The notes beneath the pieces were generated by a model. The model made no database searches. It saw only the letters and a list, made by a program, of their open reading frames with translations, and was not told the DNA's origin. Source: an uncultured Anaerolineae bacterium (GTDB taxonomy: Bacteria; Chloroflexota; Anaerolineae; JAFGEY01). Taken from it: a DNA stretch of 64,000 nucleotides. Every line of letters starts with the position of its first letter. Within the stretch, counting starts at the first letter, position 1. Positions 1 to 44,044 of this stretch are shown here, in pieces. Position numbers and translations under genes: made by a program. Location of the stretch: assembly GCA_964481205.1 (NCBI GenBank), contig CAYZYE010000002.1, positions 3,532-67,531 of the forward strand, written 5' to 3'.

Positions 1-250
1 CTTTATGCACCTGCTCGATGCAACACAACACATGGCCGCCGGCGTGGACACATTGGGCGCAGCCCCGGACACCTGGCGCGCCGGCGACACGATCGTCCAG
101 CTGCACACCTTTTGGTACCCCGCCGAGGCCGGCGTCTATGCCGTCGAGTTGGGTTGGTACGCGCCGCCGGACGGCCCCCGGCTACCGGTAGACAACGCCG
201 GCGCGCCCGGCCAACGCATCCTCCTCGATCCGCTCAAGGTGTCGCCATGA
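1..250 (+). CDS. 3' fragment of a GT39-like membrane glycosyltransferase paralog; the gene starts upstream of the window, only the C-terminal domain is present
   Basis: The translated C-terminus (ELGWYAPPDGPRLPV...RILLDPLKV) matches the C-terminal domain of the 247..2541 and 7582..10080 proteins. The stop TGA at 248-250 overlaps the next start (ATGA). Confidence 0.5.
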   Translation, partial: FMHLLDATQHMAAGVDTLGAAPDTWRAGDTIVQLHTFWYPAEAGVYAVELGWYAPPDGPRLPVDNAGAPGQRILLDPLKVSP

Positions 251-2541
251 ACCGTGTTCTCTGCCGCCGCCCCGACCACATCGCCTCGATTTTGCTCCTC
301 CTCCTGTTCGGCTTGCTGATTTTCAGCATCGCCCTCAAGTCGCCGACTCTGGACGAGCAAAACCACATCGCCCGTGGGCTGGCCTGGCTAAAAACCGGCG
401 ATCTGCGCCTCAGCCAGGAGCACCCGCCGGGCGTCAACGCCTGGGAAGCGTGGCCGCTGCTGCTTGACCCAAACGTCAACCTGCCGTTAGACAACCCCAG
501 TTGGGCCAACGCCGAGTGGTATGGTTTTGCCGACCAACTGTTGTGGCGCGTCAACGACGGCGCGACGCGGGCGCGCATGCTCATGGCCGCGCGCGCGCCG
601 GTGATGTGGCTGACCTTGCTCCTCGCGGCGGTGGTCTATCGCTGGGCCAAAATGTTGAGCAACGGTTGGGGCGGCCTGTTGGCAATGAGCATGCTCATTT
701 TCGACCCCAACATCCTGGCCCACGGCCGCCTGACGACAACCGACATGGGCGTCACCTGCCTCGCCGTCGTCTCGATCTTTGCCCTGTGGCGGGCGCAGAA
801 CGTGGATCGCTGGCCGCGCTGGCTGTTTGCCGGCGCCACCCTGGGACTGGCGATGGGAACCAAGTTCTCGGCGCTGCTGCTGGCGCCGGTCATCGCCCTG
901 CTCGTCATTGCGGCCCGGACCAGCGCCAGGCCGCACCTGAGCATGCGGGAAAAAATGGGGCGACTCGCGATTTTGTTTGCAACAAGCCTGCTCGTCCTTT
1001 GGGCCGTGTACGGTTTCGAGTGGGGGACGAGCGACCTCTTGGGCAACTGGCCGCTGCCCGCGCCATCTTTTATCGACGGCCTCCACTCGATCCTCGAACG
1101 AACCGGCGGCGGCTCGACGGCCTTTTTGATCGGGCGCTATTCGGAGCGCGGCTGGTGGACTTTTTTTCCCATCGCGTTTGCGATCAAGACCCCGCTGCCG
1201 ACGCTGGCGTTGCTCGGCGCGGCGATCATCCTGGCGCTCAAATCGAAAACCTCGCCCGCCCCATACTCGCACCTCATCGTTCCGGCCCTGGCCTTTGGGG
1301 CGATGGCGATCGCCAGCGGGTTCAACATTGGCTACCGGCATATTTTACCCGTGCTGCCATTTTCGTACATTGCGGCCGGAGCACAGATCGCCAATCACAA
1401 GTCCATTCGCCGTTCACCGTTCGCCGTTCGCGGCCTGCTGCTGGCCGTCTGCTGCTTGCTGTTTGCCACTATCAACATCTTGCCCAACTATTTGGCCTTT
1501 TTCAACCTCGTCGCCGGCGGGCCGGGCAACGGCTATCGCTACCTGGTCGACTCGAACCTGGATTGGGGGCAAGACTTGCCCGCCCTGGCTCGATGGGTGA
1601 AACAACACAACGTTCAACGAATCAATTTGAGCTGGTTTGGCGCGGCGCATCCCGAAATGTACGATTTCGATTTCAACCCGCTGCCCGGATTTTGGCGTTT
1701 TGGCGGCGACCCGGCCGCGTATGGATTCAACCCCTATCGCCCGGCCCCCGGCATATACGCGATCAGCGCCAGCAACCTGCAAGGGATCAAACTCGCCGAC
1801 CGCGACACATTTGCCTGGTTTCGGGCGCAAGCGCCGCTTGACCACATTGGACATTCGATCTTGATCTATGAGGTCAAACCGGCCCCCCCGCCGCGTCAGG
1901 CGCTCGTGCTCCAAACGCCGATGACGCAGCTGTCCCAACCCGAACGCGCCCTGCTGCGCGAGGGCGCGTCCGTTCGACAATTCGACCCGGCAAGCGGGGC
2001 GATCTGGCCCGCCGTCGAGCGCGTCTGGTTTGTCACGCGCGAACCGTTGGCCTGGGGCAAAGCGGCGCGAAGAAAAGCGGGCTATGTCGTGACCGCCGGC
2101 GCTTGGAGCGAGGCCGAACCACGCTTCCGCCAGGCGCGTCCGTGCGACGCCGACACGCGCTTTGGGCGGCTGATCGCCTTGCGCCGCTACCAGGTGCCCA
2201 ACATGTCGCTCGCACGAGACGAAACGCTCACCGTGACCGCCTGGTGGACAGTCATCGACCGCCCGCGCCGCCCGGCCACGTCATTTGCACATCTGCTCGA
2301 CGCGCAGGGACGCTATGTCGCCGGGTGGGACGGCCTGACCGCGCCGGCGACGTGCTGGCAACCGGGCGATCTCGTCGAACAAATCTATGCCATCCCCCTC
2401 CCCGATGATTTGGCTCCGGCCAAGTATCAACTCGAAATCGGATGGTACGACGCCGAAAGCGTGCAACGCTGGCCGCTCACCGTCGGCGGCGCGCCCGGCG
2501 GCGACCGGCTGCTCATCGCCGACGTCGAGATCGGCCCGTAA
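247..2541 (+). CDS. Glycosyltransferase family 39 (PMT/ArnT-like, GT-C fold) polytopic membrane protein with a C-terminal extracytoplasmic domain
   Basis: Long ORF with many hydrophobic segments. A PMT-like DE motif (SPTLDEQNHIARG) lies in the first loop. It is a paralog of 7582..10080 (shared YRYLVDSNLDWGQDL block). The ATG at 247 overlaps the upstream stop. Confidence 0.75.
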   Translation: MNRVLCRRPDHIASILLLLLFGLLIFSIALKSPTLDEQNHIARGLAWLKTGDLRLSQEHPPGVNAWEAWPLLLDPNVNLPLDNPSWANAEWYGFADQLLWRVNDGATRARMLMAARAPVMWLTLLLAAVVYRWAKMLSNGWGGLLAMSMLIFDPNILAHGRLTTTDMGVTCLAVVSIFALWRAQNVDRWPRWLFAGATLGLAMGTKFSALLLAPVIALLVIAARTSARPHLSMREKMGRLAILFATSLLVLWAVYGFEWGTSDLLGNWPLPAPSFIDGLHSILERTGGGSTAFLIGRYSERGWWTFFPIAFAIKTPLPTLALLGAAIILALKSKTSPAPYSHLIVPALAFGAMAIASGFNIGYRHILPVLPFSYIAAGAQIANHKSIRRSPFAVRGLLLAVCCLLFATINILPNYLAFFNLVAGGPGNGYRYLVDSNLDWGQDLPALARWVKQHNVQRINLSWFGAAHPEMYDFDFNPLPGFWRFGGDPAAYGFNPYRPAPGIYAISASNLQGIKLADRDTFAWFRAQAPLDHIGHSILIYEVKPAPPPRQALVLQTPMTQLSQPERALLREGASVRQFDPASGAIWPAVERVWFVTREPLAWGKAARRKAGYVVTAGAWSEAEPRFRQARPCDADTRFGRLIALRRYQVPNMSLARDETLTVTAWWTVIDRPRRPATSFAHLLDAQGRYVAGWDGLTAPATCWQPGDLVEQIYAIPLPDDLAPAKYQLEIGWYDAESVQRWPLTVGGAPGGDRLLIADVEIGP

Positions 2542-2769: not shown

Positions 2770-5004
2770 ATGTTTACCGTAATATACCTTACCATATTGC
2801 TCTGCATCGACCTGGCGATCGCCTTGTTGCCGGCCGGCGATTGGCGCGCCGCGCTCGCCTTTGTGTTGCTGTGGGTCATGCCCGGCTATGCCTGGGGCCG
2901 GGCGCTCAAAAATCGCTGGCTGATCGGAATGGGCATTGGCGTTGGCGGCAACGTGCTGTTGATGTTGTTGCTCCATTACTGGCCCGGCCCGATCTCGTTT
3001 GGGCCGGCGCTGATCCTGTTTTCGCTATCCGCCTCGCTCCCGTTGTCGATGCGCCGCGTCGCGCCCAAAACGCCCCGAATCTCGCCTTACCTCATTGCCG
3101 TGCTACTCATCGGCGCATTGTTCCGGCTGCCCAACCTCGGCTACAGCGAATTTCAGGGCGACGAGGGAATCATTATGGTTCGCGCTGCCGCCGCGCTCAC
3201 CGGCGACGACGCCGAATTGTTTTTGCACCAAAAAGGGCCCGTCGAAATCTTGCTGCCGATGGCCGCCTGGACGCTCGGCGGCGCGCTCGACGAGTTTTGG
3301 GCGCGGTTGCCCTTTGCCTGGGCCGGTCTGCTGGGGCTGGCAACGATATTCGAGTTGGGACGGCGCTGGTTTGGCCCGGCCGGCGGGCTGGTCGCCGGGC
3401 TGCTGCTGGCGATCAATGGGTTTCACGTCGCCTTTGGCCGCATCGTCCAGTACCAGGATGTCGTGGTCTGGATGGGCTTGTTATCGCTCCTCGTCCTCGA
3501 CGAGTACCGCGTGCAGCGGCGACGGTGGGCGCTGCTGCTGGGCGCCGCTTTCCTGGCCGCCGGCGCGCTGGCCCATTACGACGCCATCCTCTTTGCCCCG
3601 GCCGCGGCCATGCTCGCCCTGCGCTGGACGCCGGGGCAACGATGGCGGTGGGTCGAGATCAAAGCGGGGCATTACCTCTATCCCTTACTCGTTGGTCTGA
3701 CAATCTTGGCAGTGTTCTATGTGCCATTCGTGCTCGATCCCAACTTTGGCAAGACCGCCAGCAACCTCGCCGGGGGGCGTGTGCGCGGCGGCCTGCATTT
3801 CAACGCCGGGCAAGCCTGGACAATGAGCACCGTCTACAATTCGAGCTATTACGTGATCGTGCTGCTGGCGCTGGCTCTGGCCTCACTGTGGGCGTGCAAA
3901 TCGCTGCCCCAGACGTGGTACGCCTGGGCGCTTTTTGCCGCGCCGTTCTTTTTCTACCTGATCATTGTTTTCGACCCGCGCACGCATCTCTACACCTGGT
4001 ACCCCGGCGCGGCGCTGCTCGCCGGCGCGGCCGCCGCCGGCCTGTGGAAACGCCTTCGCGGCGCAACCTGGCGCCGGGGTGTAATGACCGTGAGCGCGTT
4101 GATTTACATTCTCTTTGCCGGTTATACCTGGATAATGTTTATCGATCACCAGCCCGAATACCAGCGCACCTGGCCCGAAAACAAACGCCGCCTGTACTGG
4201 ACGACATATACCGCCATGCCGGTCTATGGACGTTTTGGCTTTCCGCACCGCGCCGGCTGGCACGCGATCGCCGCGCTGATCGCCGAGGGCGTGATCGAGG
4301 GGCGATATGCCAGCAACGAAGAACAGGAAATCACCGACTTTTACACCAGGCAAACCCCGCGCACGCACTGCGCCAAACCCAATGTGTACATTGTTGCCGA
4401 GCGGGTACAAGATCGAATCCGCATCGACTGGGACGAGCTGGAACGCGATTACACCCTGGCCGGCGTGGTCACGGCCTTTGGCGAGCCGCGCATCCGCTGG
4501 TACACGCCCGGCGACGTCGCCGAGGTGCTGCGCGTCGACCAGGCCGATTATCGCCAGTGGTGGACGCCGGAACAGGTCGCGCCGCCGGCCGCGCGCGGCC
4601 AACATCGCGTGCATTACGTGCTCGACGACCAGATCGAGTTACTCGGCTACGACCTGCGCGCCGGTCAGGCCAGGCCGGGCGGCTGGTTCGAGGTGACGCT
4701 GTATTGGCGCGCGTTGACGCCGCTGACGCGCAACAGCCAGGTTTTTGTCCACCTCTACGACGGGCAAACGCTGTGGGCGCAGCACGACGGCGCGCCAGAA
4801 TGCGCCGTCATGCCGACCACGCGCTGGGAGCCGGGGCAGGTGATCCCCGACCCGCACCTGGTTATGATCCGGCCCGACACGCCGGCCGGATCGATGTCGG
4901 TGCTGGTGGGAATGTACGACCTGCTGACCCTGGAACGACTGCCCACACCGGGCATGGTCAATAACCTCATTCCTCTGACCGAGATCGAGATTCAAGATGA
5001 GTGA
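2770..5004 (+). CDS. GT39/ArnT-like membrane glycosyltransferase (GT-C) with a C-terminal domain
   Basis: About 12 hydrophobic helices. An ArnT/PMT-type motif (YSEFQGDEGIIMVRAAAALTGDD) is present. The C-terminal ~110 aa are shared with the other paralogs. Confidence 0.7.
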   Translation: MFTVIYLTILLCIDLAIALLPAGDWRAALAFVLLWVMPGYAWGRALKNRWLIGMGIGVGGNVLLMLLLHYWPGPISFGPALILFSLSASLPLSMRRVAPKTPRISPYLIAVLLIGALFRLPNLGYSEFQGDEGIIMVRAAAALTGDDAELFLHQKGPVEILLPMAAWTLGGALDEFWARLPFAWAGLLGLATIFELGRRWFGPAGGLVAGLLLAINGFHVAFGRIVQYQDVVVWMGLLSLLVLDEYRVQRRRWALLLGAAFLAAGALAHYDAILFAPAAAMLALRWTPGQRWRWVEIKAGHYLYPLLVGLTILAVFYVPFVLDPNFGKTASNLAGGRVRGGLHFNAGQAWTMSTVYNSSYYVIVLLALALASLWACKSLPQTWYAWALFAAPFFFYLIIVFDPRTHLYTWYPGAALLAGAAAAGLWKRLRGATWRRGVMTVSALIYILFAGYTWIMFIDHQPEYQRTWPENKRRLYWTTYTAMPVYGRFGFPHRAGWHAIAALIAEGVIEGRYASNEEQEITDFYTRQTPRTHCAKPNVYIVAERVQDRIRIDWDELERDYTLAGVVTAFGEPRIRWYTPGDVAEVLRVDQADYRQWWTPEQVAPPAARGQHRVHYVLDDQIELLGYDLRAGQARPGGWFEVTLYWRALTPLTRNSQVFVHLYDGQTLWAQHDGAPECAVMPTTRWEPGQVIPDPHLVMIRPDTPAGSMSVLVGMYDLLTLERLPTPGMVNNLIPLTEIEIQDE

Positions 5005-7585
5005 GCCAGACGCGCGCAAGCACATCGAACGGGGTAACAACCCGCCGGGTCGCGCTGCGAACGCATTTTACAATAAATCTCGTATATTCATCAACACACA
5101 CTGGCCCGACCTGGCGGTCTTGATCGTGTACATTGTCCTCAGCCTGGCCATGTGCTGGCCGCTGCCCGCGCAGTTTGGCGCGCGTCTGGCGGGCGCGCAC
5201 TCGGACGCGCGCGTGTTTCAATGGAACAACTGGTGGATCAAGCAGGCCGTGTTGGCGCTAAAAAACCCAATGCGCACCGGCGCCATCTATTACCCCTCCG
5301 GCGCCTCGCTGTCGAGCCACAACACCAATTGGGTCAGTTCGCTGATCGCTTTGCCCCTCGATCTGCTTTTTGGCCCGGTGGCAGCCTACAACCTCACCTT
5401 TTTGCTCACCCTGTTCCTCGCCGCTTTTGCAATGTACCTGCTGGTGCGACACCTGACCCGGCAGCGCGGCGCGGCGCTGGTGGCCGGGCTGATTTTTGCC
5501 TTTTTCCCCTACCACCTCTCCGGCAACTGGGACGGGCAAATGAACCTCGCCAACATCCAATGGCTGCCCTTGTTCGCGCTCTTTTGCCTGCGCACGGTGC
5601 GCCGGCGCAGATGGCGCGACGCAGTGTGGGCCGGCATCTTTTTGGCCCTGTCCGGCCTCGACTGCCTGTTCTTCCCAATCTTTGCGGGCATGTGGGCGCT
5701 GATCTATGCGCTCTATGTGTTGTCGTTCGAGCGGCGCGCGCTCGACCGGCGGCTGTTCAAATTGGGCGGCGCCGGCGCGCTGGTCGCCCTGACGCTGCTC
5801 GCGCCGGTCATGATCCCGGCGCTGGCTGACGCCCGGCGCGGTTCGACCGAATCGGCGCTCAACTATTACGCCACGGAAAAATCGACCGACCTGCTGGCCT
5901 TTGTGCTGCCCAGCACACAGCACCCATTGCTGGGACGGCTCGTAGCCCCGATCTATGCCGGATTCCAGCACTGGCGTCCGGCGTTTCTGGGCGTAACGCC
6001 GCTGCTGCTGGCATTGTGGGGCCTGCTGCGCGGGCGCAAAAAAGCCGTCTTGTGGGGCGCGGCGCTGCTGTGGTTTGCGCTGCTGTCCCTGGGTACCACC
6101 TTGACCATTCAGGGCGTCGAATACACAAAAGTACCGATGCTTTACGATATTTTAACCAAATGGATTCCGGCGCTCAAGATCATCCGGCAGGCCAGCCGGT
6201 TCAACATCATGGTCATGTTTTCGCTGTCCGTCCTGGCAGGGCTGGGCTGCGCCGATCTGTGTGCGCGACGACACGGCGTCATCGCCGGCGCACTTGGGGC
6301 GATCATTTTGTTCGAGTACCTGGCCTGGCCCTGCCCCACCCTGCCCGCCGAGGTCTCGCCATTTTACACCCAACTGGCGCAAGAGACGGGCGATTTTGCG
6401 ATCCTCGAACTGCCGCTCGACGACTTTTACTCTCGCCGTTCGCTCTATGCGCAGACGATCCACGGCGCCAAATTGGTCAACGGCTACCTGGCCCGCGTCC
6501 CCGCCCACGCGCACGATTTTGTCCAGGGCAACGCGCTGCTGAAAAAGCTGTTCATCCGCATGGAGGTCGATCCCCGCCTGATCGACCTCGAACGCGAGAT
6601 CGGCCTGCTGCGCGCCAACGGCATCCGCTATGTCGTCATCCAAAAGCAGCCGCTCCCACCGCACCCGGCGGTCGAGGCCGGCGTGCAGGCCGGGTGGCGC
6701 GAGTTGTTCGGCCCGGACGTGTTTTACGAGGACGCGGACATTGCCGTCTACCGGCTGACTGCGCCCCGGCTGCCGCCCGCCGAGGCCGGCAAGCCGGTCA
6801 ACGACGACCTCGCGCTGGTCGAGGTGCAAACGCGCCGCGTCGAGGCGGCCGGGCGGCAGTGGCTGCGCGTCGATGTTTTGTGGAGCGCGCGGCAAAAAAT
6901 GACCCGCGATTACCGTTGCCAATTGTCTATCTTTGATGGTCAAGGAATTGAAACGACGTTCGACGATCTGATCTCGCCGCGTTTCCCCACCTCACGCTGG
7001 ACGCCGGGGCTGCTCGTCGCCGAACGCTATGCGTTGCCGATCCCGGCCGCGCTGCCGCCGGGCGAATACCGGCTGGCGATGACGCTTTCGGATGGCCGGC
7101 AAGAGACGGCATATACGACGTCGATCGTCGCGCCGCCAGAGGCGACATCGCTCAGTCCGGCGCTCGACGAGATGCAGGCCAGCGCCGACGTCACCTTTGC
7201 CGGCCGGCTGTGGCTGATCGGCTATACGGCGGCGCAGGACGGCGGGCAGCTCAAACTCGATCTGTACTGGCAGGCGCTGCGGGCCATGGCGGTCGATTAC
7301 AAAATGTTTGCGCACCTGATCGACCCCAACGACGATGCGATTGTCGCGCAGAGCGATTGGATGCCGCGCGACTGGTCTTATCCCACCTCATTGTGGGACC
7401 GCCGGGAAATGTTCATCGACCGGGTTGTGTTGGATGTCGGCGGCGTTGCCCCGGGCCAATACCGGCTGGCCCTGGGCGTGTACCGGCCGGGCGGTGATCG
7501 CCTGACGGCGGTGGACGGCGCGGGGCGCGAGATCGCGGACCATCGCGCGCTCATGGCGCAAATGGTCGAGGTGCGAGCGCCATGA
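4997..7585 (+). CDS. Polytopic membrane protein, putative GT-C glycosyltransferase, carrying two tandem copies of the family C-terminal domain
   Basis: The ATG at 4997 overlaps the upstream stop (ATGA). Hydrophobic N-terminal half. Two repeats of the W-rich ~100 aa domain at the C-terminus. Confidence 0.6.
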   Translation: MSEPDARKHIERGNNPPGRAANAFYNKSRIFINTHWPDLAVLIVYIVLSLAMCWPLPAQFGARLAGAHSDARVFQWNNWWIKQAVLALKNPMRTGAIYYPSGASLSSHNTNWVSSLIALPLDLLFGPVAAYNLTFLLTLFLAAFAMYLLVRHLTRQRGAALVAGLIFAFFPYHLSGNWDGQMNLANIQWLPLFALFCLRTVRRRRWRDAVWAGIFLALSGLDCLFFPIFAGMWALIYALYVLSFERRALDRRLFKLGGAGALVALTLLAPVMIPALADARRGSTESALNYYATEKSTDLLAFVLPSTQHPLLGRLVAPIYAGFQHWRPAFLGVTPLLLALWGLLRGRKKAVLWGAALLWFALLSLGTTLTIQGVEYTKVPMLYDILTKWIPALKIIRQASRFNIMVMFSLSVLAGLGCADLCARRHGVIAGALGAIILFEYLAWPCPTLPAEVSPFYTQLAQETGDFAILELPLDDFYSRRSLYAQTIHGAKLVNGYLARVPAHAHDFVQGNALLKKLFIRMEVDPRLIDLEREIGLLRANGIRYVVIQKQPLPPHPAVEAGVQAGWRELFGPDVFYEDADIAVYRLTAPRLPPAEAGKPVNDDLALVEVQTRRVEAAGRQWLRVDVLWSARQKMTRDYRCQLSIFDGQGIETTFDDLISPRFPTSRWTPGLLVAERYALPIPAALPPGEYRLAMTLSDGRQETAYTTSIVAPPEATSLSPALDEMQASADVTFAGRLWLIGYTAAQDGGQLKLDLYWQALRAMAVDYKMFAHLIDPNDDAIVAQSDWMPRDWSYPTSLWDRREMFIDRVVLDVGGVAPGQYRLALGVYRPGGDRLTAVDGAGREIADHRALMAQMVEVRAP

Positions 7586-10080
7586 GCAGACAAGGCGAAA
7601 TTTTTGTCGCCACGGCGCTGCTGGCGATCATGTTTGCCCTAATGATCACCAGCGCCGTGCAAAAATCACCCACCTATGACGAACAGGTTTATATCTCGCG
7701 CGGTTACGCCTTTGTCAAACGAGGCGACCTGCACATCCTGGTCGGCGAGCCGGTGCTGCTCAACGCGCTCAACGCGCTGCCGCTGCTGGCGCTGCCGGGC
7801 GTCCGTCTGCCCACCGGCCAACCGGCGTGGGCGGGCGACAATTTTCACCCCATCGCCGAGGCGTTCATGTGGCAGGTCAACGCCAACGCCGATCAAATGC
7901 TGTTCCTGGCCCGCGCGCCGACGATGCTGCTCGCGTTGCTGCTGGCCGTTTTTGTCTACCGCTGGGCGCGAGAGGCGTTCGGTCGCGCGGCGGCGCTGCT
8001 GTCACTGGCGCTGTGCGTGTTCGACCCCAACTTGCTCGCCCACGGGCGGCTGGCCGCCACAGATCTCGGCTCGACGGCGCTCATTTTCATCTGTACCTAT
8101 TGGCTGTGGCAATTGCTGCGCCGGCCGTCCTGGGGCAACGTGCTGTGGAGCGGCTTTTTTTTCGGGCTGGCGCAGGCCGCGCGATTTTCGGCGCTGCTCT
8201 TTGCGCCGGGCTTTGCCCTGCTCTTTGCCGCGCGCGTCCTCTCGCCGGCGCCTTTTGCGCTGCCCCGGCGCGGCGCAAGCGTCGAGGTGCGGCCAACGCC
8301 ATCCCCCCAGCCCCGGTGGAAGCGCCTGGTCTGGCTGGCGGCGGCCGGCGCGCTGATCGTGCTGATCGGTTATGCGACTTTGTGGGCTGTACACGGCTTT
8401 CAATGGACGCCGGTCCGTGGCGCGACGACCTGGCCCGTGCCGGCGGCATCTTTGTGGGAACAATTGCGCTACATTTCGGGGCGTCTGTCCGGCGACAAGG
8501 ATCCCGTGACCGGTTTTTTGCTGGGCGAGTTGTATGTGGGCGGCAAATGGCAATATTTTCCGGTGGCGTGGCTGCTAAAAACCCCGCTGCCGACATTGGC
8601 GCTGTGGCTGACCGCCGTTTTCGGCAGCCTCCGTTCTGCGCTGCGACGCGCCGGACCGGATCGCCGGCCGGGGTTGGCCCTCTGGCTGCCCCCGCTGCTC
8701 TATTTTTTGATTACCTTGAACAGCAAACTCAATCTTGGTTATCGCTACATTTTGCCCGTGCTGCCTTTTGCCATCGTGCTGGCCGGGCGGTGTGGAGCAT
8801 GGGCGGTCGAGCGCATCTCGACGCTGGGCGGAGAACGTCGCGCGCTGGCGACATCGTTGGCCGCGCTGGCGGTCGGCTGGGCGGTGTGGAGCGGGATCGA
8901 CATTTGGCCGCATTATCTGGCCTTTTTCAACGAGCTGGCCGGCGGCCCCGACGGAGGCTGGCGCTACCTGGTCGATTCAAACCTCGATTGGGGCCAAGAC
9001 CTCAAACTGCTCAAACGATGGGCAGACGAGCATCACGTCGCCAAGATCAAGCTGGCTTATTACGGCGAGGGCGTCCCCGCGTATTATGGGCTGGACATAG
9101 AGCCGCAAATTTGCTCCCCCGACCGCTGGCAGCACCCCCTGTACCACGATCTCTATTTCGACGACCCCGCGCCCGGCGTATACGCGATCAGCGCCAACCT
9201 GCTTCAGGGGCGCAATCTGGCGCGCCCGGAGACCTATCGCTGGTTCCGCGAGCGCGCCCCGGTGGACAAGGTGGGGTATTCGATTTTCATTTACGAGGTC
9301 CCCCGGTGGGGAGATGAGGCAGTGATCGCGCTGTCGGGGTTGTCGCCGCCGGACATTCGCGCCGAGGATTACGCGCTGCTCGGCGGCAATGATGTGCGCG
9401 TGCTGTGGTTCGACGCCGCGCGGTCGGCGCTTTTTCCGTCCGGCGATCAGCCCACGTTCTCGTTTGTGCCTGGTGAAATGGAAACGCCCCCGGCGCTCGT
9501 ACATTTGGGGGCAGGCGCTTTGCTTCGCTCAAGCACACTCCGCGACGGCCGCCCGCTGCGTATTTTCAAAAATATAGATCGTGTTGATGCGCTACGTTAC
9601 ATTGATTCCCTTGATTTCGCGGCCTGGTATATGCCCGCGTCGACATTTGCGCCCGGCGATCCGGCCGGGCATGGCGCGCCGTTGGGCGCGCCGGTGCGGT
9701 TTGGCTGTGTCGAATTGCTGGGCTATGAATCGAGCCAAAGCAATGCGCTGCCCGGCGAGAGGTTGACGTGGATCACGTACTGGCGCGTCGTCGAGCCGGC
9801 AGCAGAGCCGCTGACGCTGTTTGTCCACCTGCTCGACGCCGGCGGCGTCAATCGCGCGGGCGAGGATCGCGGGGACGTATGGTATGATAACTGGCGGCGC
9901 GGCGACGTATTTGCGCAGCTAGAAGAGATTCAGCTGCCGGCCGAGTTGGCGGCCGGACGTTATCAAGTCGAGATCGGCTGGTACACGCCGAGGACGATGG
10001 CGCGGCTGCCGGTGCTCAAAGAGGGGCAAGAGATCGCCGACCGGATATTGTTGGCGCCGGTGACGATAGCCGACCGGTGA
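7582..10080 (+). CDS. GT39 family membrane glycosyltransferase, paralog of 247..2541
   Basis: ATGA overlap with the upstream gene. Conserved blocks (DEQVYISRGYAF, WRYLVDSNLDWGQDL). Same C-terminal domain. Confidence 0.75.
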   Translation: MSRQGEIFVATALLAIMFALMITSAVQKSPTYDEQVYISRGYAFVKRGDLHILVGEPVLLNALNALPLLALPGVRLPTGQPAWAGDNFHPIAEAFMWQVNANADQMLFLARAPTMLLALLLAVFVYRWAREAFGRAAALLSLALCVFDPNLLAHGRLAATDLGSTALIFICTYWLWQLLRRPSWGNVLWSGFFFGLAQAARFSALLFAPGFALLFAARVLSPAPFALPRRGASVEVRPTPSPQPRWKRLVWLAAAGALIVLIGYATLWAVHGFQWTPVRGATTWPVPAASLWEQLRYISGRLSGDKDPVTGFLLGELYVGGKWQYFPVAWLLKTPLPTLALWLTAVFGSLRSALRRAGPDRRPGLALWLPPLLYFLITLNSKLNLGYRYILPVLPFAIVLAGRCGAWAVERISTLGGERRALATSLAALAVGWAVWSGIDIWPHYLAFFNELAGGPDGGWRYLVDSNLDWGQDLKLLKRWADEHHVAKIKLAYYGEGVPAYYGLDIEPQICSPDRWQHPLYHDLYFDDPAPGVYAISANLLQGRNLARPETYRWFRERAPVDKVGYSIFIYEVPRWGDEAVIALSGLSPPDIRAEDYALLGGNDVRVLWFDAARSALFPSGDQPTFSFVPGEMETPPALVHLGAGALLRSSTLRDGRPLRIFKNIDRVDALRYIDSLDFAAWYMPASTFAPGDPAGHGAPLGAPVRFGCVELLGYESSQSNALPGERLTWITYWRVVEPAAEPLTLFVHLLDAGGVNRAGEDRGDVWYDNWRRGDVFAQLEEIQLPAELAAGRYQVEIGWYTPRTMARLPVLKEGQEIADRILLAPVTIADR

Positions 10081-10219: not shown

Positions 10220-10609
10220 ATGACACGTCAAGTTGTTTCTACCCCCCATGCGCCGGCGGCAGTCGGGCCGTATTCTCAAGCCATCAAGATCGACCAGCTG
10301 GTGTACACCGCCGGGCAGTTGGGTATGGACCCGCAAACCGGCAAACTGGTCTCCGGCGGCGTTCAGGCTCAAACCCGCCAGGCGCTCACCAACCTGCAAG
10401 CCGTTCTCGATGCCGCCGGTGCCTCGATGGACACGGTGATCAAGACCACCGTCTTTATGGACGACATGCATGATTTCCAGGCAATGAACCAGGTCTATGC
10501 CGAGTTCTTTGCCCAAGCGCCGCCGGCGCGCTCGGCGGTGCAGGCCGCGGCGCTCCCGCTGGGCGGGCTGGTCGAGATCGAAGCGGTTGCGGTCATCGAC
10601 CAATCATGA
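10220..10609 (+). CDS. ridA: RidA/YjgF family reactive-intermediate deaminase
   Basis: 129 aa with the typical RidA sequence (PAAVGPYSQA...TVFMDDMHDFQAMNQVYAEFF). An AGGAG RBS is present. Confidence 0.9.
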   Translation: MTRQVVSTPHAPAAVGPYSQAIKIDQLVYTAGQLGMDPQTGKLVSGGVQAQTRQALTNLQAVLDAAGASMDTVIKTTVFMDDMHDFQAMNQVYAEFFAQAPPARSAVQAAALPLGGLVEIEAVAVIDQS

Positions 10610-10619
10610 CCGAGACCTC

Positions 10620-12089
10620 ATGTTTGCCCGCCTGAACCTCGAACGGCTGGTCACGGCCATCGTACTCGTTGCCGTGTTTGCGATGGCCGTGCGTGTGCCG
10701 GCCAGCCCGGACACATGGTGGCACTTGCGCTGCGGCGAGGTGCAGTGGCAAACCCGCGCGGTGCTCAAATCCGATCTGTTTTCGCACACCGCGCAAGGCG
10801 CGCCCTGGGTCAACCAAAGCTGGCTGCCTCAATTGGCAATGTACGGCCTGTGGACACTGGGCGGCTTTCCAGCCCTGGCCCTGGCCGTCGCGGCCCTGGT
10901 TGCCGGCGCGGTCGCCCTGATTCTGGCCGCCTCTGAGGCGCCGGGGCGTTACGGTTACCTGTGGCGCGCCCTGGTCGTCATTTGGGCCGCCATCTCGACG
11001 GGGCGCGTGTGGGCGGCGCGCCCGCACCTGATCTCCTTTTTGCTCACCGCCGCGTGGCTCTATTTACTCGATCGACACCGCGCGGGCAAGCCGAAGGCGC
11101 TGTACTGGCTGCCAGGGCTGATGGCGCTGTGGGCCAACAGCCACGGCGGTTATATCGTCGGCTTTTTGCTGCTCTGCGCCGAGATCGGCGGCCAGGTATT
11201 GGACTGGCTGCCGGCGCGCCGAACGAGTTCACTCTGGCCGCGCATCAAGCCGTTCGTCCTCCTGACTCTGCTCGCGGCACTGGCGGCATCGATCAACCCA
11301 CAGGGTCTTGGTCTGCTCTTGTTTCCCTTTCAGACCTTGAGCAGCCCGGCTCAACAAAACTATGTCGCCGAATGGGCTTCGCCCGACTTTCACGCCGCCG
11401 ATATGCTGCCTTTTTTGGGGCTGCTTTTAGCCACGTGGAGCGCGCTGGTGTTCAGCACCCGGCCGGTCAACGGCGCCGAGTGGCTCCGGCTGCTGGGCTT
11501 TTCGGCGATGGCGCTCCGTTCGGGCCGCTATCTGGGATTGTGCGCCCTGGTCATGGCGCCACTGTTGGCGCAGCACGGCGCCGCCGCGCTGGCGCGATTT
11601 GGGTTGCCCGGCGGCAACAATGTTCGATCGCGGCCAACGCGAGGGCATCCGGCGATCAACTGGCTGCTGCTCGCGCTCATTGTAACCGCGTCCGTCCTCA
11701 AAATCGCCCGTCCCCTCGACGCCGCGCTGATCGAACGCATTCACCGGCAGTCCTTTCCCGTCGACGCCGTTGACTATATGCAGCAACGCCAACTGCCCGC
11801 CACGCTGTTCAACGAATACGCCTGGGGCGGATACCTGATTTGGCGTCACATTCCCGTCTTTATCGACGGGCGCGCCGACCCTTATGGCGATGCGCTGATC
11901 ACTGCCTATCGCAACGCCATTTCGGCACAGCCGGGCTGGGAGCAAACGCTAGATTCATCCGGCGTCCACACGGCATTGCTCGCCGCCAACAGCCCTCTGG
12001 CAATGGTGATGGAAACAAACGCCGGTTGGAAAAATGTGTACCGGGACGACATCGCCGTCCTTTATGTAAAAACACTCGCCCACCGTTGA
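10620..12089 (+). CDS. Polytopic integral membrane protein of unknown function, possibly GT-C-like
   Basis: About 490 aa, mostly hydrophobic helices. The start was chosen at the first ATG after the ridA stop. Confidence 0.55.
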   Translation: MFARLNLERLVTAIVLVAVFAMAVRVPASPDTWWHLRCGEVQWQTRAVLKSDLFSHTAQGAPWVNQSWLPQLAMYGLWTLGGFPALALAVAALVAGAVALILAASEAPGRYGYLWRALVVIWAAISTGRVWAARPHLISFLLTAAWLYLLDRHRAGKPKALYWLPGLMALWANSHGGYIVGFLLLCAEIGGQVLDWLPARRTSSLWPRIKPFVLLTLLAALAASINPQGLGLLLFPFQTLSSPAQQNYVAEWASPDFHAADMLPFLGLLLATWSALVFSTRPVNGAEWLRLLGFSAMALRSGRYLGLCALVMAPLLAQHGAAALARFGLPGGNNVRSRPTRGHPAINWLLLALIVTASVLKIARPLDAALIERIHRQSFPVDAVDYMQQRQLPATLFNEYAWGGYLIWRHIPVFIDGRADPYGDALITAYRNAISAQPGWEQTLDSSGVHTALLAANSPLAMVMETNAGWKNVYRDDIAVLYVKTLAHR

Positions 12090-12163: not shown

Positions 12164-12226
12164 TCGAATCCAGTGGCTACCCTGGGGGAGCTGATCGAGA
12201 TCATCCAGCCATTTTGGGAGCGCCAG

Positions 12227-13444
12227 ATGGCCCAGTACAAGTTCAAATGCCGCCCTTGCCCGCCCCACATCCGCCGACAATGTATCCAAGAAGCGCACGT
12301 CTCGCCTGCGGCAAAACGGATCATCATCCAATCATTTGAAGCAAGAACAGACACGCAAGCGACCTGGGATCTGCTGCAACACAATTGCCTGCTCGTCCGC
12401 CGCGAAAACATGCCCACCATCGCGCCGGTGTCACGCAAGGGAGGTTTGCGAGATCGCCTTTTTGGCCCAGAGCCGCCTCCTGCCCAGGAAGACAAAGCAT
12501 CTCAACAACCGCCCCCCAGCCAGCAGCTGCCCGTGGTCAAACCATACCAGCCGCGTTCCCCGGCTGCTGAACCCACAACGTCTCAGCCGACCACTCAAAC
12601 AGTCTCGCAGACCAGGTTCATCCGCACCCAACGCCCGGCCGATCGCGCCAGAACACCTACGCCTCGGACGGTTCATTTGCCCAGGCCGCAAACACCCGTT
12701 TCCAAGGCGCCAATCCTGCGCTATCCGCGCGCCCGGCAGCCGCACGTCGTTGCCAACGAACAACCCGGACCGAGAATACTGGTCTCGCAGGTGATCGGCC
12801 ACCGCATCTCGCTGCCCACCGACGGCGAGTTGGTGCTGGGGCGCTTTGATCCGTTCACCAAAATCAAGCCCGACATTGACTTGACATTTGAAGACCGGAT
12901 CACCAGGGGCATTTCGCGCCGCCACGCCCAAGTGATCGGTTGGCAAGGACACTATGCGATCAAGGATTTGGGCAGCACCTTTGGCACCTGGGTCAACGAC
13001 AAACGGTTGTCGCTAGAACAAAAACAACCCTTGCGCATCGGCGATATGATCCGGCTGGGTAATTGTGTCCTATTTCTGGACCGTCCGCCAAACCTATGGA
13101 AAACGCCGTTGTCTCTGGAACGCTGCTTTTTCTATTCCACGTTTTCGGGACAATACCTGGCCATCCCGGCCAAACCGGCGATCGTCATCGGGCGCGCCGA
13201 CGCCGGCCTGGGGTTCAAGCCGGACATCGATCTCGGCGCAGAAGAAGAAGCGGCGTCAGCCGTCTCACGACGACATGCCAGACTACTTTGGCGAAACGGG
13301 CAACTCGTCGTCCAAGATTTGGGCAGCACACAACACACCGCGATCGATGGACGCCAGGTGCCCATCGGCGCCAAGACGCCCATCTTGCCCGGACAGCATT
13401 TGTGGTTGGGGGGATACACCATCGCTTTTGATATGGTCGAGTGA
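12227..13444 (+). CDS. Twin FHA-domain protein with an N-terminal Cys-rich motif and a Pro-rich linker
   Basis: Two FHA-like segments (GRxDP...DIDL...SRRHA...GSTxGTWVN...GD.I.LG). The start is at ATG 12227 (GGGAG RBS). The track's alternative start is at 12173. Confidence 0.8.
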   Translation: MAQYKFKCRPCPPHIRRQCIQEAHVSPAAKRIIIQSFEARTDTQATWDLLQHNCLLVRRENMPTIAPVSRKGGLRDRLFGPEPPPAQEDKASQQPPPSQQLPVVKPYQPRSPAAEPTTSQPTTQTVSQTRFIRTQRPADRARTPTPRTVHLPRPQTPVSKAPILRYPRARQPHVVANEQPGPRILVSQVIGHRISLPTDGELVLGRFDPFTKIKPDIDLTFEDRITRGISRRHAQVIGWQGHYAIKDLGSTFGTWVNDKRLSLEQKQPLRIGDMIRLGNCVLFLDRPPNLWKTPLSLERCFFYSTFSGQYLAIPAKPAIVIGRADAGLGFKPDIDLGAEEEAASAVSRRHARLLWRNGQLVVQDLGSTQHTAIDGRQVPIGAKTPILPGQHLWLGGYTIAFDMVE

Positions 13445-13495
13445 TCTCGCCCCTACTGAAACACAACACACCATATTCCATTGAGGAGCATCACG

Positions 13496-14320
13496 ATGAA
13501 AGGCAGCACAGCCGCTATCGGCAACATGCCCCCAAGAATCATTTGGGAGCCAGACAACAAAGAAATGATCTTGATTTCGGGCGGTGAATTCTTGATGGGA
13601 CGAGACGACGGGCAGGATGACGAACGTCCGGCGCATACAGTTTATGTATTGCCATTCTACATCGACCGTTATCCTGTTACGCAACAAGAATACCATCGCT
13701 TTGTTCAGGCAACGGATCATCCGATCCCAAGGTACGATGTCGAGTGGGTCGATTCGAGCGCCTATAATTGGGACTCGGATACCCGCACGCCGCCGCCGGA
13801 CAAACTCGACCATCCCGTTGTCCTGGTCACCTGGGGCGACGCGCTGGCTTACAGCCAATGGGCGCAAAAACGCCTGCCCACCGAAGCCGAGTGGGAACGC
13901 GCGGCGCGCGGCACAGACGGACGTCGTTGGCCCTGGGGCGACAAACTGAAAGAGGAAAATTGCAACACCCGTTACCTCGATCTCGGCCAGACCACGCCCG
14001 TTCACCAGTTCTCCCCGCAAAGCGACACCCCTGAAGGAGTCGGAGATCTGATCGGCAACACCTGGGAGTGGACCGGATCACTTTACCGGCCATACCCATT
14101 TGACGAGAACGACGGGCGGCAGGACCCCAGCGCGCCGGGGTGGCGCGTCTTGCGCGGGGGGTCGTGGCTCAACGATTTTTCACAGGCCAATTCGACCACC
14201 CGGCTCGACGGCGACTTTTTGTTCTATACCAACGTCGGCTTTAGGTGCGCCATCTCGGTCAGCGTGGTCCAAGATGCGCTGTACGCAGCGTTTATCGATG
14301 AATGTCAAAGTTCATCTTGA
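13496..14320 (+). CDS. Formylglycine-generating-enzyme (FGE/SUMF1) domain protein
   Basis: FGE-sulfatase domain motifs (HPVVLVTWGDALAYSQWAQKRLPTEAEWERAARG, FRCA). AGGAG RBS. Confidence 0.8.
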   Translation: MKGSTAAIGNMPPRIIWEPDNKEMILISGGEFLMGRDDGQDDERPAHTVYVLPFYIDRYPVTQQEYHRFVQATDHPIPRYDVEWVDSSAYNWDSDTRTPPPDKLDHPVVLVTWGDALAYSQWAQKRLPTEAEWERAARGTDGRRWPWGDKLKEENCNTRYLDLGQTTPVHQFSPQSDTPEGVGDLIGNTWEWTGSLYRPYPFDENDGRQDPSAPGWRVLRGGSWLNDFSQANSTTRLDGDFLFYTNVGFRCAISVSVVQDALYAAFIDECQSSS

Positions 14321-14371
14321 TCCACTCAGACTCTGGTTCACGCCTGACCCAGTCGATCCTGGAGTGCATAC

Positions 14372-15160
14372 ATGCCGCAATACCTCAAATATCCAGACCC
14401 AATTCTGCCCCAACCGCGCGACATAGAGCCGCCTGGGCCGAGAATTCTCGTCTCCCAGGCGCTGGGACATCGCATTTTGCTGCCCGAAGATGGCGAACTT
14501 GTGCTGGGACGCTTTGACCCGACCTATAAAGTCAAACCGGACATCGATCTGACGGCTGAAGACAAAGCCGCGTGGGGCATTTCTCGACACCACGTGCGGC
14601 TTGTCGGCTGGCGGGGGCAATATGAAATCGAGGATATGGGGAGCAGCAACGGCACCTGGGTCAACGATGAACAAATCGAGTCCGGGCGCAAAGTCCCGCT
14701 CACGGTGGGCGACCAGGTACGCCTGGGCGGCAGCATTTTCTATTTCGACCGCCCGCCGACGATCTGGAAAATGCCCATCACCCGGCAACAAGGCTTTTTC
14801 TATGTCACCTTTACCGGACACTATTACCCGCTGCCCGGCCAAAAGACGATCCTGGTTGGACGTTCCGACTCTAAACTCGGTTTCAAGCCCGACATTGCGC
14901 TGAATGACGAAGACGAGTCGATCACCGTTGTCTCGCGCAAACACATCAAATTGACGCTTCGCGGCGAACAATACATGGTCGAGGATATGGGCAGCTCGTT
15001 TGGCACCAGGTTGGACGGGACCAAAGTCTACGCCGGGATCAAAATCCCCCTCCATCCAGGACAGCACTTGTGGCTGGGCGGATACACACTGGCCTTTGAT
15101 GTGATCGCCAAGCCGACCGCCCCGCCATCGACAGGCGCAAAAACAGCCCCACTGCTCTAG
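14372..15160 (+). CDS. Twin FHA-domain protein, paralog of 12227..13444 without the N-terminal extension
   Basis: Collinear similarity to the C-terminal 260 aa of 12227..13444 (PGPRILVSQ.LGHRI.LP.DGELVLGRFDP). Confidence 0.8.
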   Translation: MPQYLKYPDPILPQPRDIEPPGPRILVSQALGHRILLPEDGELVLGRFDPTYKVKPDIDLTAEDKAAWGISRHHVRLVGWRGQYEIEDMGSSNGTWVNDEQIESGRKVPLTVGDQVRLGGSIFYFDRPPTIWKMPITRQQGFFYVTFTGHYYPLPGQKTILVGRSDSKLGFKPDIALNDEDESITVVSRKHIKLTLRGEQYMVEDMGSSFGTRLDGTKVYAGIKIPLHPGQHLWLGGYTLAFDVIAKPTAPPSTGAKTAPLL

Positions 15161-17798: not shown

Positions 17799-19082
17799 TT
17801 AGACCGCCCCCTTGTTCAACATTGCCAAAAATTCGGCATTGTTTTCGGTGCTTGATATCCGATCGATCAAAACAGAGGTCGCATCGGCCATATCATACCC
17901 GGCGCCCTTTGGAGGCGATGTCATCAATTGAGCCAACATCCGTCTCATTAACCATACCCTAGATAGGGTACTTTTGTCAAGTAGCAATTCTTCACGCCGG
18001 GTGCTGGAACGGTCAATATCAAAAGCAGGATAAATCCGGCGCTCGGCCAGGCGCCGATTCAGATGCAACTCCATGTTGCCCGTACCCTTGAACTCTTCAT
18101 AGATCAGATCGTCCATGCGGCTGCCGGTATCGACCAGACAAGTCGCCACGATCGTCAGACTGCCGCCCTCCTCGATGTTCCTCGCCGCGCCGAAAAAATG
18201 CTTGGGCGGATAAAGCGCCGCCGGGTCCATACCGCCGGACAGGGTGCGCCCGCTGGGCGGGACAATCATATTATAAGAGCGCGTCAGGCGGGTGATCGAA
18301 TCCAACAAAATCACGACATCGCGCCCATCCTCGACCAACCGCTTGGCGCGATTCAAAGCCATTTCGGCGACGCGCACATGATCGCGCTCCGGCTCGTCAA
18401 AAGTCGAGGCCACAACCTCGGCGTCGACAGAGCGATCCATATCGGTGACTTCTTCGGGGCGTTCGCCGATCAGGCAGACCATCAAATGCACGTCATTATA
18501 ATTGGCCGTAATGCCATTGGCAATCTGTTTCAAGATCATCGTCTTGCCGGCTTTGGGCGGCGACACGATCAGCCCTCGCTGACCGCGGCCAATCGGCGAC
18601 ACCAAATTGATCATCCTCGGCGCGATCGGGTGTTTTCCCGTCTCCAAATCAAACCGCTCGTCGGGAAAAATGGGGGTCAACCGCTCGAAACGTGGACGTC
18701 GCTTGGCCTCTTCGGGGTCCAGGCCGTTCACCGCGTCGATGCGCAACAGGCCAAAATACTTTTCCGTGTCTTTGGGCGGGCGCACCTGACCGATGACCAT
18801 ATCGCCGGTGCGCAGACCAAAGCGCCGAATCTGGGACTGCGAGACGTAAATATCTTCCGAAGAGGGCAAAAAACCTCTGGGGCGCAAAAAACCCAGGCCT
18901 TCATCCACAACATCCAGGATACCGCCGCCAAAATTGTATCCCTGCTGTTCGGCCTGGGTGCGCAGCAAGCGCATAATCAAATCATATTTTTTGAGCCGGC
19001 TAAAGCCCGAAGTGCCCATCTCGCGGGCCAGATCGCGCAAATCTTGTAATGTTTTTAAATCCAATTCACCAAAGGATAACAT
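17799..19082 (-). CDS. rho: Transcription termination factor Rho
   Basis: Full-length match to Rho architecture with a Walker A motif ([11 protein letters not shown]). GGAG RBS. Confidence 0.95.
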
Positions 19083-34260: not shown

Positions 34261-34312
34261 GAGCCGATGAAAAAAATGGACGCGCCCCGGCAATGACCTG
34301 GGTAAAAATCTA

Positions 34313-35792: not shown

Positions 35793-37742
35793 ATGATACA
35801 CCAGACAGCACAGCGTACAAAACCACATTCATCGATCCACTGGACATTGCTGATCATTTTGCTGATCGGCGCCTGGTTCAGATGGGCCTCACTGGGACGA
35901 ATGAACGACATGCTTCACTATGACGAAGCCTACAACGGCATCGACGCCGCCTCACTGCTCGACGCCCCGCGCCTCACCCCATTCTTTCCAGACAACTTTG
36001 GGCGAGAAAGCGGCTGGCACTATTTGGCCGCGCCGTTCATCGCCATCTGGGGCGCGACCCCTTTTTCCATGCGCCTCCTCTCGACAATGCTCGGCATCCT
36101 CACCCTGGCCGCCATTTACCCGCTAGGCCAGGAATTGCTTGGCCCAACCGGCGCAACGTGGAGCGCGGCCTCGTTGGCCGTGCTCTATTGGCACGTACAC
36201 ATCAGCCAATTGGCCCTGCGCGCCATCCTCTTCCCCTTACTCGGCGTCCTGGCGCTGGCCTGCCTGCTCAACGCGCGCCGCACAAACACCCGCCGGGCCT
36301 GGCTGTGCGGTGGACTGTTTCTCGGCTTGATGGCCTATTCCTATTTTTCTGCCCTGTTGTGGATAATATACACCGTTCTTTCACTGTTGGCATGGACAAG
36401 ATCGTCGGAACGGCGGCGGGGCGCGCTCATCGCCCTGACAATCGCCGCCGTCCTCGCGCTGCCCCTCGTCATCTATACCATCCGCGACCCCGCGCACACG
36501 CTCACGCGCACCAACACCGTCGCTGCCGCCTCGATGACCCAGATTGCCAACAACTCGCTGCTCTGGGCCAAAGCCTGGTTCGAGACAGGCGACACAATTC
36601 CCGAATTCAACCTCAAAGGCCGCCCGATCCTCGACCCATACCTGGGGACACTCGTCCTCGCCGGGCTGGCCGGGTTGTTCCTGGCCGTCCGCCGCAAATG
36701 GGACAGCCTCTGGCTGCTCGGATTGGCCCTTTTTGCCATGCTGCCCTCGATTTTGAGCGAAAACGCGCCCCACTTTTTACGCGCCGTCGGGCTGACGATC
36801 CCCATCTCTCTCCTGACCGGCGCCGGCGCGCAGACAGCGCAGCGTCTTGTGCAGCGCATTTCCGGCCGGAACACACTCGCGCTCCTGCTCCCCCTGGCCC
36901 TGTTGTCTGCCAGCGGCGCAATTGCCTACCGCGACTTTCACCAACGCTGGCTCAACCACCCAGAAACATTCTGGTTTATGGAAGAACACGTCAATCGCGC
37001 CGCCAACTTTATCAAAGCAAACACCGCCGGCGCGATGCCGGTCTACTTGGCGCCATTTGCGCCCGGACACCCCGTAGTGATCTTGCGCAGCCGCGACCTC
37101 GCGCCGCGCTACGTCGGCACGTTTGACCCGCAGCAATGTCTCGTCATCGCCGACCGCCCCGCCATCTATGTCGCGCTGACCCAATATCAGCCCGAATTCG
37201 AGCAAACCATGTCCAAATGGCTCGAGATGACGATCCTTGACCAGGATCGAAACGCGGCCGGCAAGAGACCGCGATACACCGTTTTTCGGGCCGCGCCGCG
37301 CGCCGACGCGCCGCTCGCCGGCAAAACGACATTCATGTTCGCCGACACTTTGCGCCTGCGCGCGATACAACCCATTTCAGACACCGCCCGTCCGGGGCAG
37401 CGCATCCCCATCCTGCTCGCCCTCGACACCAGGCGCCCCCTCAAGCGCCCGTACAGCGTCTTTGTGCATCTCTACGGCGACCCGGCGCCCGCCCAGGGCG
37501 GCGCAATCTGGGGCTATGGCGACAGCCAACTCTGCGTCTCGTACCCCACCAACTTTTGGCGGCCCGGCGAAAGCGTGCTGCAACAATTTACACTCAACGT
37601 CGCACCCAACACGCCACCCGGCGATTACGACATTGCCGTGGGCGTATACGAAAGCCCGGCCGGCGCGAGGCTGCCCGTCACCAACCCGGAATCGCCACCC
37701 GCCGATTATATCCTCTTGAAAACGATCCATGTCCAACAATGA
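35793..37742 (+). CDS. GT39/ArnT-like membrane glycosyltransferase paralog with the family C-terminal domain
   Basis: A YDEAYNG loop motif after the first TM, many TM helices, and the shared C-terminal domain (SVFVHLYGDP...WRPGESV...PGDYDIAVGVY). Confidence 0.7.
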   Translation: MIHQTAQRTKPHSSIHWTLLIILLIGAWFRWASLGRMNDMLHYDEAYNGIDAASLLDAPRLTPFFPDNFGRESGWHYLAAPFIAIWGATPFSMRLLSTMLGILTLAAIYPLGQELLGPTGATWSAASLAVLYWHVHISQLALRAILFPLLGVLALACLLNARRTNTRRAWLCGGLFLGLMAYSYFSALLWIIYTVLSLLAWTRSSERRRGALIALTIAAVLALPLVIYTIRDPAHTLTRTNTVAAASMTQIANNSLLWAKAWFETGDTIPEFNLKGRPILDPYLGTLVLAGLAGLFLAVRRKWDSLWLLGLALFAMLPSILSENAPHFLRAVGLTIPISLLTGAGAQTAQRLVQRISGRNTLALLLPLALLSASGAIAYRDFHQRWLNHPETFWFMEEHVNRAANFIKANTAGAMPVYLAPFAPGHPVVILRSRDLAPRYVGTFDPQQCLVIADRPAIYVALTQYQPEFEQTMSKWLEMTILDQDRNAAGKRPRYTVFRAAPRADAPLAGKTTFMFADTLRLRAIQPISDTARPGQRIPILLALDTRRPLKRPYSVFVHLYGDPAPAQGGAIWGYGDSQLCVSYPTNFWRPGESVLQQFTLNVAPNTPPGDYDIAVGVYESPAGARLPVTNPESPPADYILLKTIHVQQ

Positions 37743-39178: not shown

Positions 39179-39254
39179 GGATGTGTTTCATTTGCTTTGT
39201 AGGTCGCCCGCAAGGGGCGATGCTACAAACGCCCAAACCATTTGAAACACATCC
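39179..39254. repeat. Repeat family 2, copy A: imperfect TIRs GGATGTGTTTCA...TGAAACACATCC around a conserved hairpin core GTAGGTCGCCCGCAAGGGGCGATGCTAC
   Basis: Related copies at 44045..44153, 48837..48938 and 49202..49368. Confidence 0.5.
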
Positions 39255-39277
39255 CATTGAAAAGGAAAGGAAAACGT

Positions 39278-43947: not shown

Positions 43948-44044
43948 CAGAATCCTCCCCCTCCCACCCACACGCAGATATGTGCCTCCCACCAGCTACC
44001 ATTTTAACACGTTCTGATGTTAAATTCAAGCAGCACTTGCGCAA

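Follow-up and report, generated by a model that had tools for sequence, protein, structure and literature searches.

A 64,000-nucleotide stretch of DNA from an uncultured Anaerolineae bacterium (contig CAYZYE010000002.1 of assembly GCA_964481205.1; this whole stretch is called the window, and positions are counted in it) carries six genes for PMT_2-type membrane glycosyltransferases of the GT-C class, and seven copies of one soluble module sit at the extreme C-termini of these six genes. The kind of module is a familiar one, a beta-sandwich accessory domain on GT-C enzymes; judged by its sequence, it is a family that is so far unnamed in Pfam-A, NCBIfam and the sequences of the PDB. As to its function, we tentatively favour an extracytoplasmic, glycan-binding accessory domain resembling carbohydrate-binding modules (CBMs), which would hold the polymer at the active site of the GT-C enzyme.

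The seven copies all lie on the + strand, and the representative one, a terminal copy of 126 residues, spans 2161-2538. Their relatedness was examined by a leave-one-out procedure: each copy in turn was omitted from the hidden Markov model (HMM) and then scored with it, and 1000 shuffles of that segment served as the control. The partial copy at 2-247, which comprises the last two thirds of the module and has a canonical F-H-D-W-G-Y-R signature, scored 40.5 bits, and the terminal copy at 4621-5001 (signature F H D P W G Y R) scored 82.5 bits. In the one protein with two modules, the degenerate internal copy at 6800-7180 (W Q S D - W T S A) reached 51.9 bits and the canonical terminal copy at 7181-7582 (F H D P W G Y R) 51.4 bits, and the terminal copies at 9670-10077 and 37299-37739 (the latter with F H D W G Y R D) reached 96.0 and 80.3 bits. 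Because these scores (40.5-96.0 bits, E 1e-14 to 8e-32) far exceed those of the shuffled segments (12.3 bits at most), the similarity among the seven copies is homology; a compositional artefact is ruled out by the same control. In composition-corrected pairwise BLASTP, 17 of the 21 module pairs matched at E<=1e-5 (1e-5 to 1e-21), and each of the remaining four (E 0.02-8) involves the 82-residue fragment, the internal copy at 6800-7180 or the terminal copy at 7181-7582. A six-frame HMM scan found no further copy in the window. A preliminary description of this DNA, made from its letters, had noticed a tryptophan-rich pattern shared by these C-termini, and the seven segments do align with TLYW.AL, VFVHL.D..G, W.PGE and PG.Y.L.VG.Y; its claim that the module is duplicated in tandem in the gene 4997..7585 holds as well, the HMM finding two adjacent domains in that protein at residues 582-722 and 707-862. 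The size it gave has to be corrected: the module is real but measures about 120-126 residues, not about 110, and a start at position 2200 clips its first strand.

The same description had recognised no named domain in the module, and our searches agree. With the cut-off set at E<=10, hmmscan of the seven copies yielded just three Pfam-A families, MalQ_N (0.0015), DUF4832 (0.033) and Ig_J (0.15), each matched by a single copy; being single-copy, sub-threshold and mutually inconsistent, these were treated as generic beta-sandwich noise. NCBIfam had no match for the module, and the PDB, searched with sequence profiles of the module and of the full-length protein, had none for either. Precomputed Pfam annotation of 240 homologues marks no domain over the module in any of them, and scanning nine multi-copy homologues directly against Pfam placed none there either; the CBM families of Pfam-A were matched neither by any window copy nor by these nine proteins. 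Literature searches found no description of the module.

AlphaFold2 modelled the segment 2161-2538, with an alignment of 66 sequences, as a nine-strand all-beta sandwich whose strands lie within residues 5-124 (pLDDT 92.8, pTM 0.85). The carbohydrate-binding domains (CBDs) of Wzt head the Foldseek ranking for this model, at E ~1e-5 and TMq 0.66-0.68, and NPC2, RhoGDI and accessory domains of GH3 enzymes come next. A comparison with CBM or Ig-like folds had been proposed as a check on the module; on this confident prediction, the module would be an Ig-like/jelly-roll beta-sandwich accessory domain.

The enzymes that bear it belong to the GT-C class. The N-terminal membrane part of all five complete genes matches PMT_2 above threshold (27.7-42.2 bits; cut-off 26.1), and no Pfam family matches their last ~130 residues. 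A full-length AlphaFold2 model of the product of 7582..10080 (pLDDT 91.4, pTM 0.88) contains 11 transmembrane (TM) helices followed by a soluble part of 390 residues, the last ~125 of which are the module (beta-strands at residues 710-829). Structure comparison assigns this model a GT-C fold like that of ArnT, PMT and STT3, and an acidic YDEQ motif (residues 32-35) lies in the first extracytoplasmic loop, the predicted catalytic one. Lys and Arg cluster at alternate 'in' junctions of the protein, which indicates an N-in/C-out topology and so puts the module on the side of the first loop. On this predicted topology the module would be extracytoplasmic, as the preliminary description had supposed.

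The pattern of conservation differs between terminal and internal copies. In a sample of 357 terminal and 177 internal copies (residues numbered as in the profile), both Trp are kept in 97-99% of either class, whereas F73, H75, D88, G129, Y131 and R138 are found in 97-99% of terminal copies and in 31-79% of internal ones, and D151 in 84% and 27%, respectively. The last copy thus shows a near-invariant F-H-D-W-G-Y-R(-D) signature, whatever the core family. In the window all six terminal copies have the signature, and the sole internal copy, at 6800-7180, retains both Trp and the Asp but no longer has F, H, G, Y and R; the gene 4997..7585 does contain two modules, as claimed, but the first of them is degenerate. 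Because the signature residues are kept in terminal copies and often lost in internal ones, they are candidates for function, and since internal copies tolerate their loss they are probably functional rather than required for the fold. In the numbering of segment 2161-2538, the signature is made up of F42, H44, D57, W66, G94, Y96, R103 and D115. The conserved F/H of strand 3 and G/Y of strand 6 should face outward from the core of the sandwich, since they alternate with aliphatic core residues in the sequence and in the strands assigned by DSSP in the model.

The GT-C genes are arranged head-to-tail on the + strand in the first 10 kb of the window. The array begins with the 3' end of a gene (2..247, ending at 250) that encodes the C-terminal 82 residues, the upstream part lying outside the window. 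It continues with a gene with a PMT_2/PMT core at 247..2541 (Pfam PMT_2 1.2e-10, PMT 7.2e-08), a second with a PMT_2 core at 2770..5004 (1.7e-10), the two-module gene at 4997..7585, whose core matches PMT_2, DUF2079 and PTPS_related weakly, and a further PMT_2 gene at 7582..10080. The sixth gene, again with a PMT_2 core (35793..37742, +; 1.3e-09), lies 26 kb from the array; the complete genes other than 4997..7585 have one module each. Consecutive genes of the array overlap at three of four junctions, by 4, 8 and 4 nt (247-250, 4997-5004 and 7582-7585), and the sole true intergenic gap is one of 228 nt (2541-2770). Because the stop and start codons of neighbouring genes interleave, a single translationally coupled operon is suggested. 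Directly 3' of the array, a multi-pass membrane open reading frame (ORF) of 530 residues (10497-12089, +) has a 'DTWWH' motif just past its first hydrophobic segment; it matches no Pfam or NCBIfam family, an HMM scan found no module in it, and it may be a further uncharacterised GT-C-like protein. The module had been said to occur on all the glycosyltransferase paralogues, which is true of all six PMT_2-type GT-C genes but not of this adjoining ORF.

Between most pairs of paralogues the cores are barely recognisable to each other in BLASTP (E 0.01-1), the exceptions being 247/7582 (40% identity) and 2770/35793 (28% identity), whereas most module pairs match at 1e-5 to 1e-21. It follows that no other part of the proteins is as well conserved as the module, and the idea that one soluble module was appended to differing GT-C cores finds support. 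A related Anaerolineae metagenome-assembled genome (MAG), GCA_016931365.1 (locus L082), contains the same five-gene array, encoding proteins of 732, 809, 751, 863 and 807 residues. Every one of them has the module, and the 863-residue protein has two copies, as does its orthologue 4997..7585; the four that match complete window genes are 59-66% identical to them. The orthologue of the edge-cut gene, at 231-2429 of that locus, encodes the 732-residue multi-pass protein, which ends in the module. Its core is closest to that of 35793..37742 (24% over 498 residues), and its C-terminal ~300 residues, the pre-module region plus the module, are closest to 7582..10080 (30% over 313 residues). Because core and tail have different closest paralogues, the protein looks chimeric, which points to an exchange of the soluble tail between paralogues.

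The family is a large one. A profile search of 1.84 billion representatives (50%-identity clusters) returned 33,056 matches at E<=1e-3, 24,603 at 1e-10 and 10,095 at 1e-30. The top matches are proteins of ~1000 residues with three to four tandem copies, and tandem arrays of two to four copies are common; most module proteins nonetheless carry a single copy, including five of the six in the window. The position of the module is strict, with a C-terminal tail of <=30 residues in 395 of 396 proteins. The cores that bear it are PMT_2, PTPS_related and TMEM260-like; one homologue has a weak YfhO match, another cluster has a member whose source name is 'Gpi18-like mannosyltransferase', and all of them are membrane proteins of the GT-C type. 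Five short proteins from long contigs that would consist of a free-standing module (P0022, P0035, P0087, P0106 and P0056) are regarded as split or mis-called genes, because they mostly have alternative start codons or an N-terminus resembling the GT-C pre-module region; P0022 is situated among GT-C genes. A comparable ORF of 184 residues, little more than one module, occurs at 6001-6555 of a Caldilineales contig (L001, JAWKOJ010000004.1) among TMEM260-like and DUF2079 GT-C genes. Its N-terminal part looks like the stretch ahead of the module in complete enzymes, so that this ORF, too, is probably a gene that was split or frameshifted and not a free-standing module.

Every source name of a protein homologue that includes an organism points to Chloroflexota. 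A genome scan, with one genome per species and a five-sequence alignment as the query, confirmed at least 592 stretches. Among the best 80, a sample biased towards the query rather than an unbiased taxonomic census, 78 loci are labelled Chloroflexota (Anaerolineae, Caldilineae, Ardenticatenales, Thermoflexia and Litorilinea). The other two are a MAG labelled 'uncultured bacterium' (L008) and a Propionibacteriaceae assembly (L072, DMIX01000418.1, UBA8946). The latter, the sole locus among the best 80 to name another phylum, is probably a mis-binned Chloroflexota contig and not a true occurrence in Actinomycetota.

How might the module work? Under the glycan-binding reading, which we prefer without being convinced of it, the C-terminal-most copy would act like a CBM. 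Phe and His from strand 3, Gly and Tyr from strand 6, and Asp, Arg and Asp from adjoining strand ends or loops would form an exposed patch, which would bind some glycan feature that the acceptors of the paralogues all share; the growing envelope polysaccharide or glycoconjugate would be kept next to the membrane-embedded active site, and the internal tandem copies, often patch-less, would act mainly as spacers. The host enzymes themselves are predicted to be polyprenyl-phosphate-sugar-dependent GT-C glycosyltransferases of Chloroflexota. There is precedent for such an arrangement, since beta-sandwich CBMs are found on the extracytoplasmic C-terminus of the GT-C enzymes EmbC (PMC3044687) and EmbB (PMC7341804); AftD (6wbx), a further GT-C enzyme with a CBM, is among the structure-comparison matches of the full-length model. 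Some observations weigh on the other side: no copy has a sequence link to any CBM or Wzt_C family of Pfam-A at E<=10, and the signature is invariant across very different cores, which is unusual for CBMs tuned to different acceptors, so that a shared ligand must be assumed. Taken as a whole, the substrate- or carbohydrate-binding role put forward in the preliminary description is partly supported.

An invariant signature fits a shared ligand and a structural or docking role equally well, and docking is a rival that we think unlikely: the terminal copy would pack through its F-H-D-G-Y-R patch on the periplasmic region of its own enzyme and shape or gate the acceptor site, as in PglB/STT3. This would suit the strictly C-terminal position, the fact that only the last copy consistently keeps the signature, and the pTM of 0.88 of the full-length model, which suggests a rigid placement of the domain. 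However, a conserved interface needs a conserved partner surface and none is evident, the same signature being found on cores and middle regions without detectable sequence similarity; arrays of three to four copies would also fit an extended arm better. It is rather unlikely that the module is an Ig-like spacer, stalk or oligomerisation domain with no ligand of its own, setting the height of the enzyme in a multilayered envelope or pairing paralogues, although the Wzt CBDs dimerise by strand exchange: a spacer has no need of His, Asp, Tyr and Arg at 97-99% in the terminal copies of divergent proteins numbering in the thousands, and most proteins have only a single copy. The invariance of the signature across unrelated cores thus argues against both a docking interface and a mere spacer. 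It would fit one common wall ligand, as expected of a localisation domain that anchors the enzyme to peptidoglycan, the S-layer or another wall component without binding the substrate, and Chloroflexota envelopes are multilayered, with layers thought to be polysaccharide or protein and of unknown composition (PMC13319060). Such an anchor seems very improbable to us, as the module has no Pfam similarity to SLH, LysM or PG_binding and the enzymes are already held in the membrane by 11 predicted TM helices; it would moreover overlap with the glycan-binding reading if the wall polymer were also the acceptor. To go beyond glycan binding in general, it is tempting to speculate, with little confidence, that what the invariant His/Asp/Tyr/Arg/Asp pocket of the last copy recognises is a single envelope polymer specific to the phylum, or else a lipid-linked head group, that all the GT-C enzymes of Chloroflexota have in common. 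The module would then serve as a universal handle for targeting and processivity, and the number of degenerate internal copies (0-3) would be a molecular ruler for the distance from the membrane at which each paralogue acts in the multilayered envelope. If so, the domain would offer a direct experimental entry to the Chloroflexota envelope glycan via ligand pull-down.

What the finding offers is a gap in annotation worth filling and a handle for experiments rather than a surprising mechanism. The Chloroflexota are an abundant phylum with a little-understood cell envelope, and many of their GT-C paralogues are annotated only as 'glycosyltransferase family 39' or 'ArnT-like'; one unnamed domain is found on tens of thousands of their proteins, counted as clusters at 50% identity. 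The module is small, soluble and confidently modelled, with a candidate binding patch, and once expressed it could serve as bait for the acceptor glycan. Databases could take it up directly as a new family, since its boundaries are clear and a seed alignment exists.

Other genes of the window were noted in passing. The sixth GT-C gene is followed, at a distance of 1.5 kb, by a complete GH38 alpha-mannosidase with all four Pfam domains (39242-41824, +), which gives a weak hint that mannose is present in the glycan involved. Immediately upstream of the sixth GT-C gene, 32893-35749 encodes a radical SAM/SPASM protein whose N-terminal domain is PqqD-like (a RiPP-maturase-like architecture), then a PHP-domain protein. 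In the regions 12173-15160 and 24486-27229, two FHA-domain proteins flank an FGE-sulfatase-like gene and an FtsW/RodA and PBP transpeptidase pair is found further on; a Ser/Thr kinase with a PD40 beta-propeller is encoded at 42049-43992 (-). We take the FHA, RodA-PBP and Ser/Thr kinase genes to resemble an actinobacterial set for cell-wall growth, here spread over ~30 kb. Rho is encoded at 17799-19082 (-) and dnaA, with all three DnaA domains, at 20185-21657 (+); the origin of chromosomal replication may be close to the window.

Several known systems can be set beside these enzymes. Relative to GT-C proteins of the ArnT/PMT/PglB type, only ~360-400 of the 832 residues of the modelled host align. 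The periplasmic domains of ArnT and PglB are alpha/beta, PMTs have MIR domains, and we know of no solved structure of this type with a C-terminal beta-sandwich like the one predicted here. The Ig-like beta-sandwich of GH2 glycosidases (e.g. 7rsk, 6hpd) shares 7-12% identity with the module, which has no Pfam Glyco_hydro_2 match; in GH2 enzymes, which are soluble hydrolases, the domain is internal and structural and has no known ligand. In predicted structure the module appears closest to the Wzt CBD (PMC9445017), whose beta-sandwich can be superimposed on the model. Identity, however, is only 11-15%, with no match to the Wzt_C family of Pfam even at E<=10. The Wzt domain is cytoplasmic and sits on the C-terminus of an ABC-transporter ATPase, whereas the module comes after all 11 TM helices of its GT-C host and is predicted to be extracytoplasmic; the Wzt CBD is, in addition, a strand-swapped dimer. 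It is in the mycobacterial arabinofuranosyltransferases EmbA/B/C and AftD that the same logic is met. Although the Emb C-terminal domain matches the module neither in sequence nor in structure, these proteins also combine a GT-C core with extracytoplasmic beta-sandwich CBMs that bind the acceptor polymer (PMC3044687, PMC7341804), and there, too, several paralogues act on one polymer. For GT-C enzymology, the module would extend the Emb/AftD principle to another phylum and to several core families.
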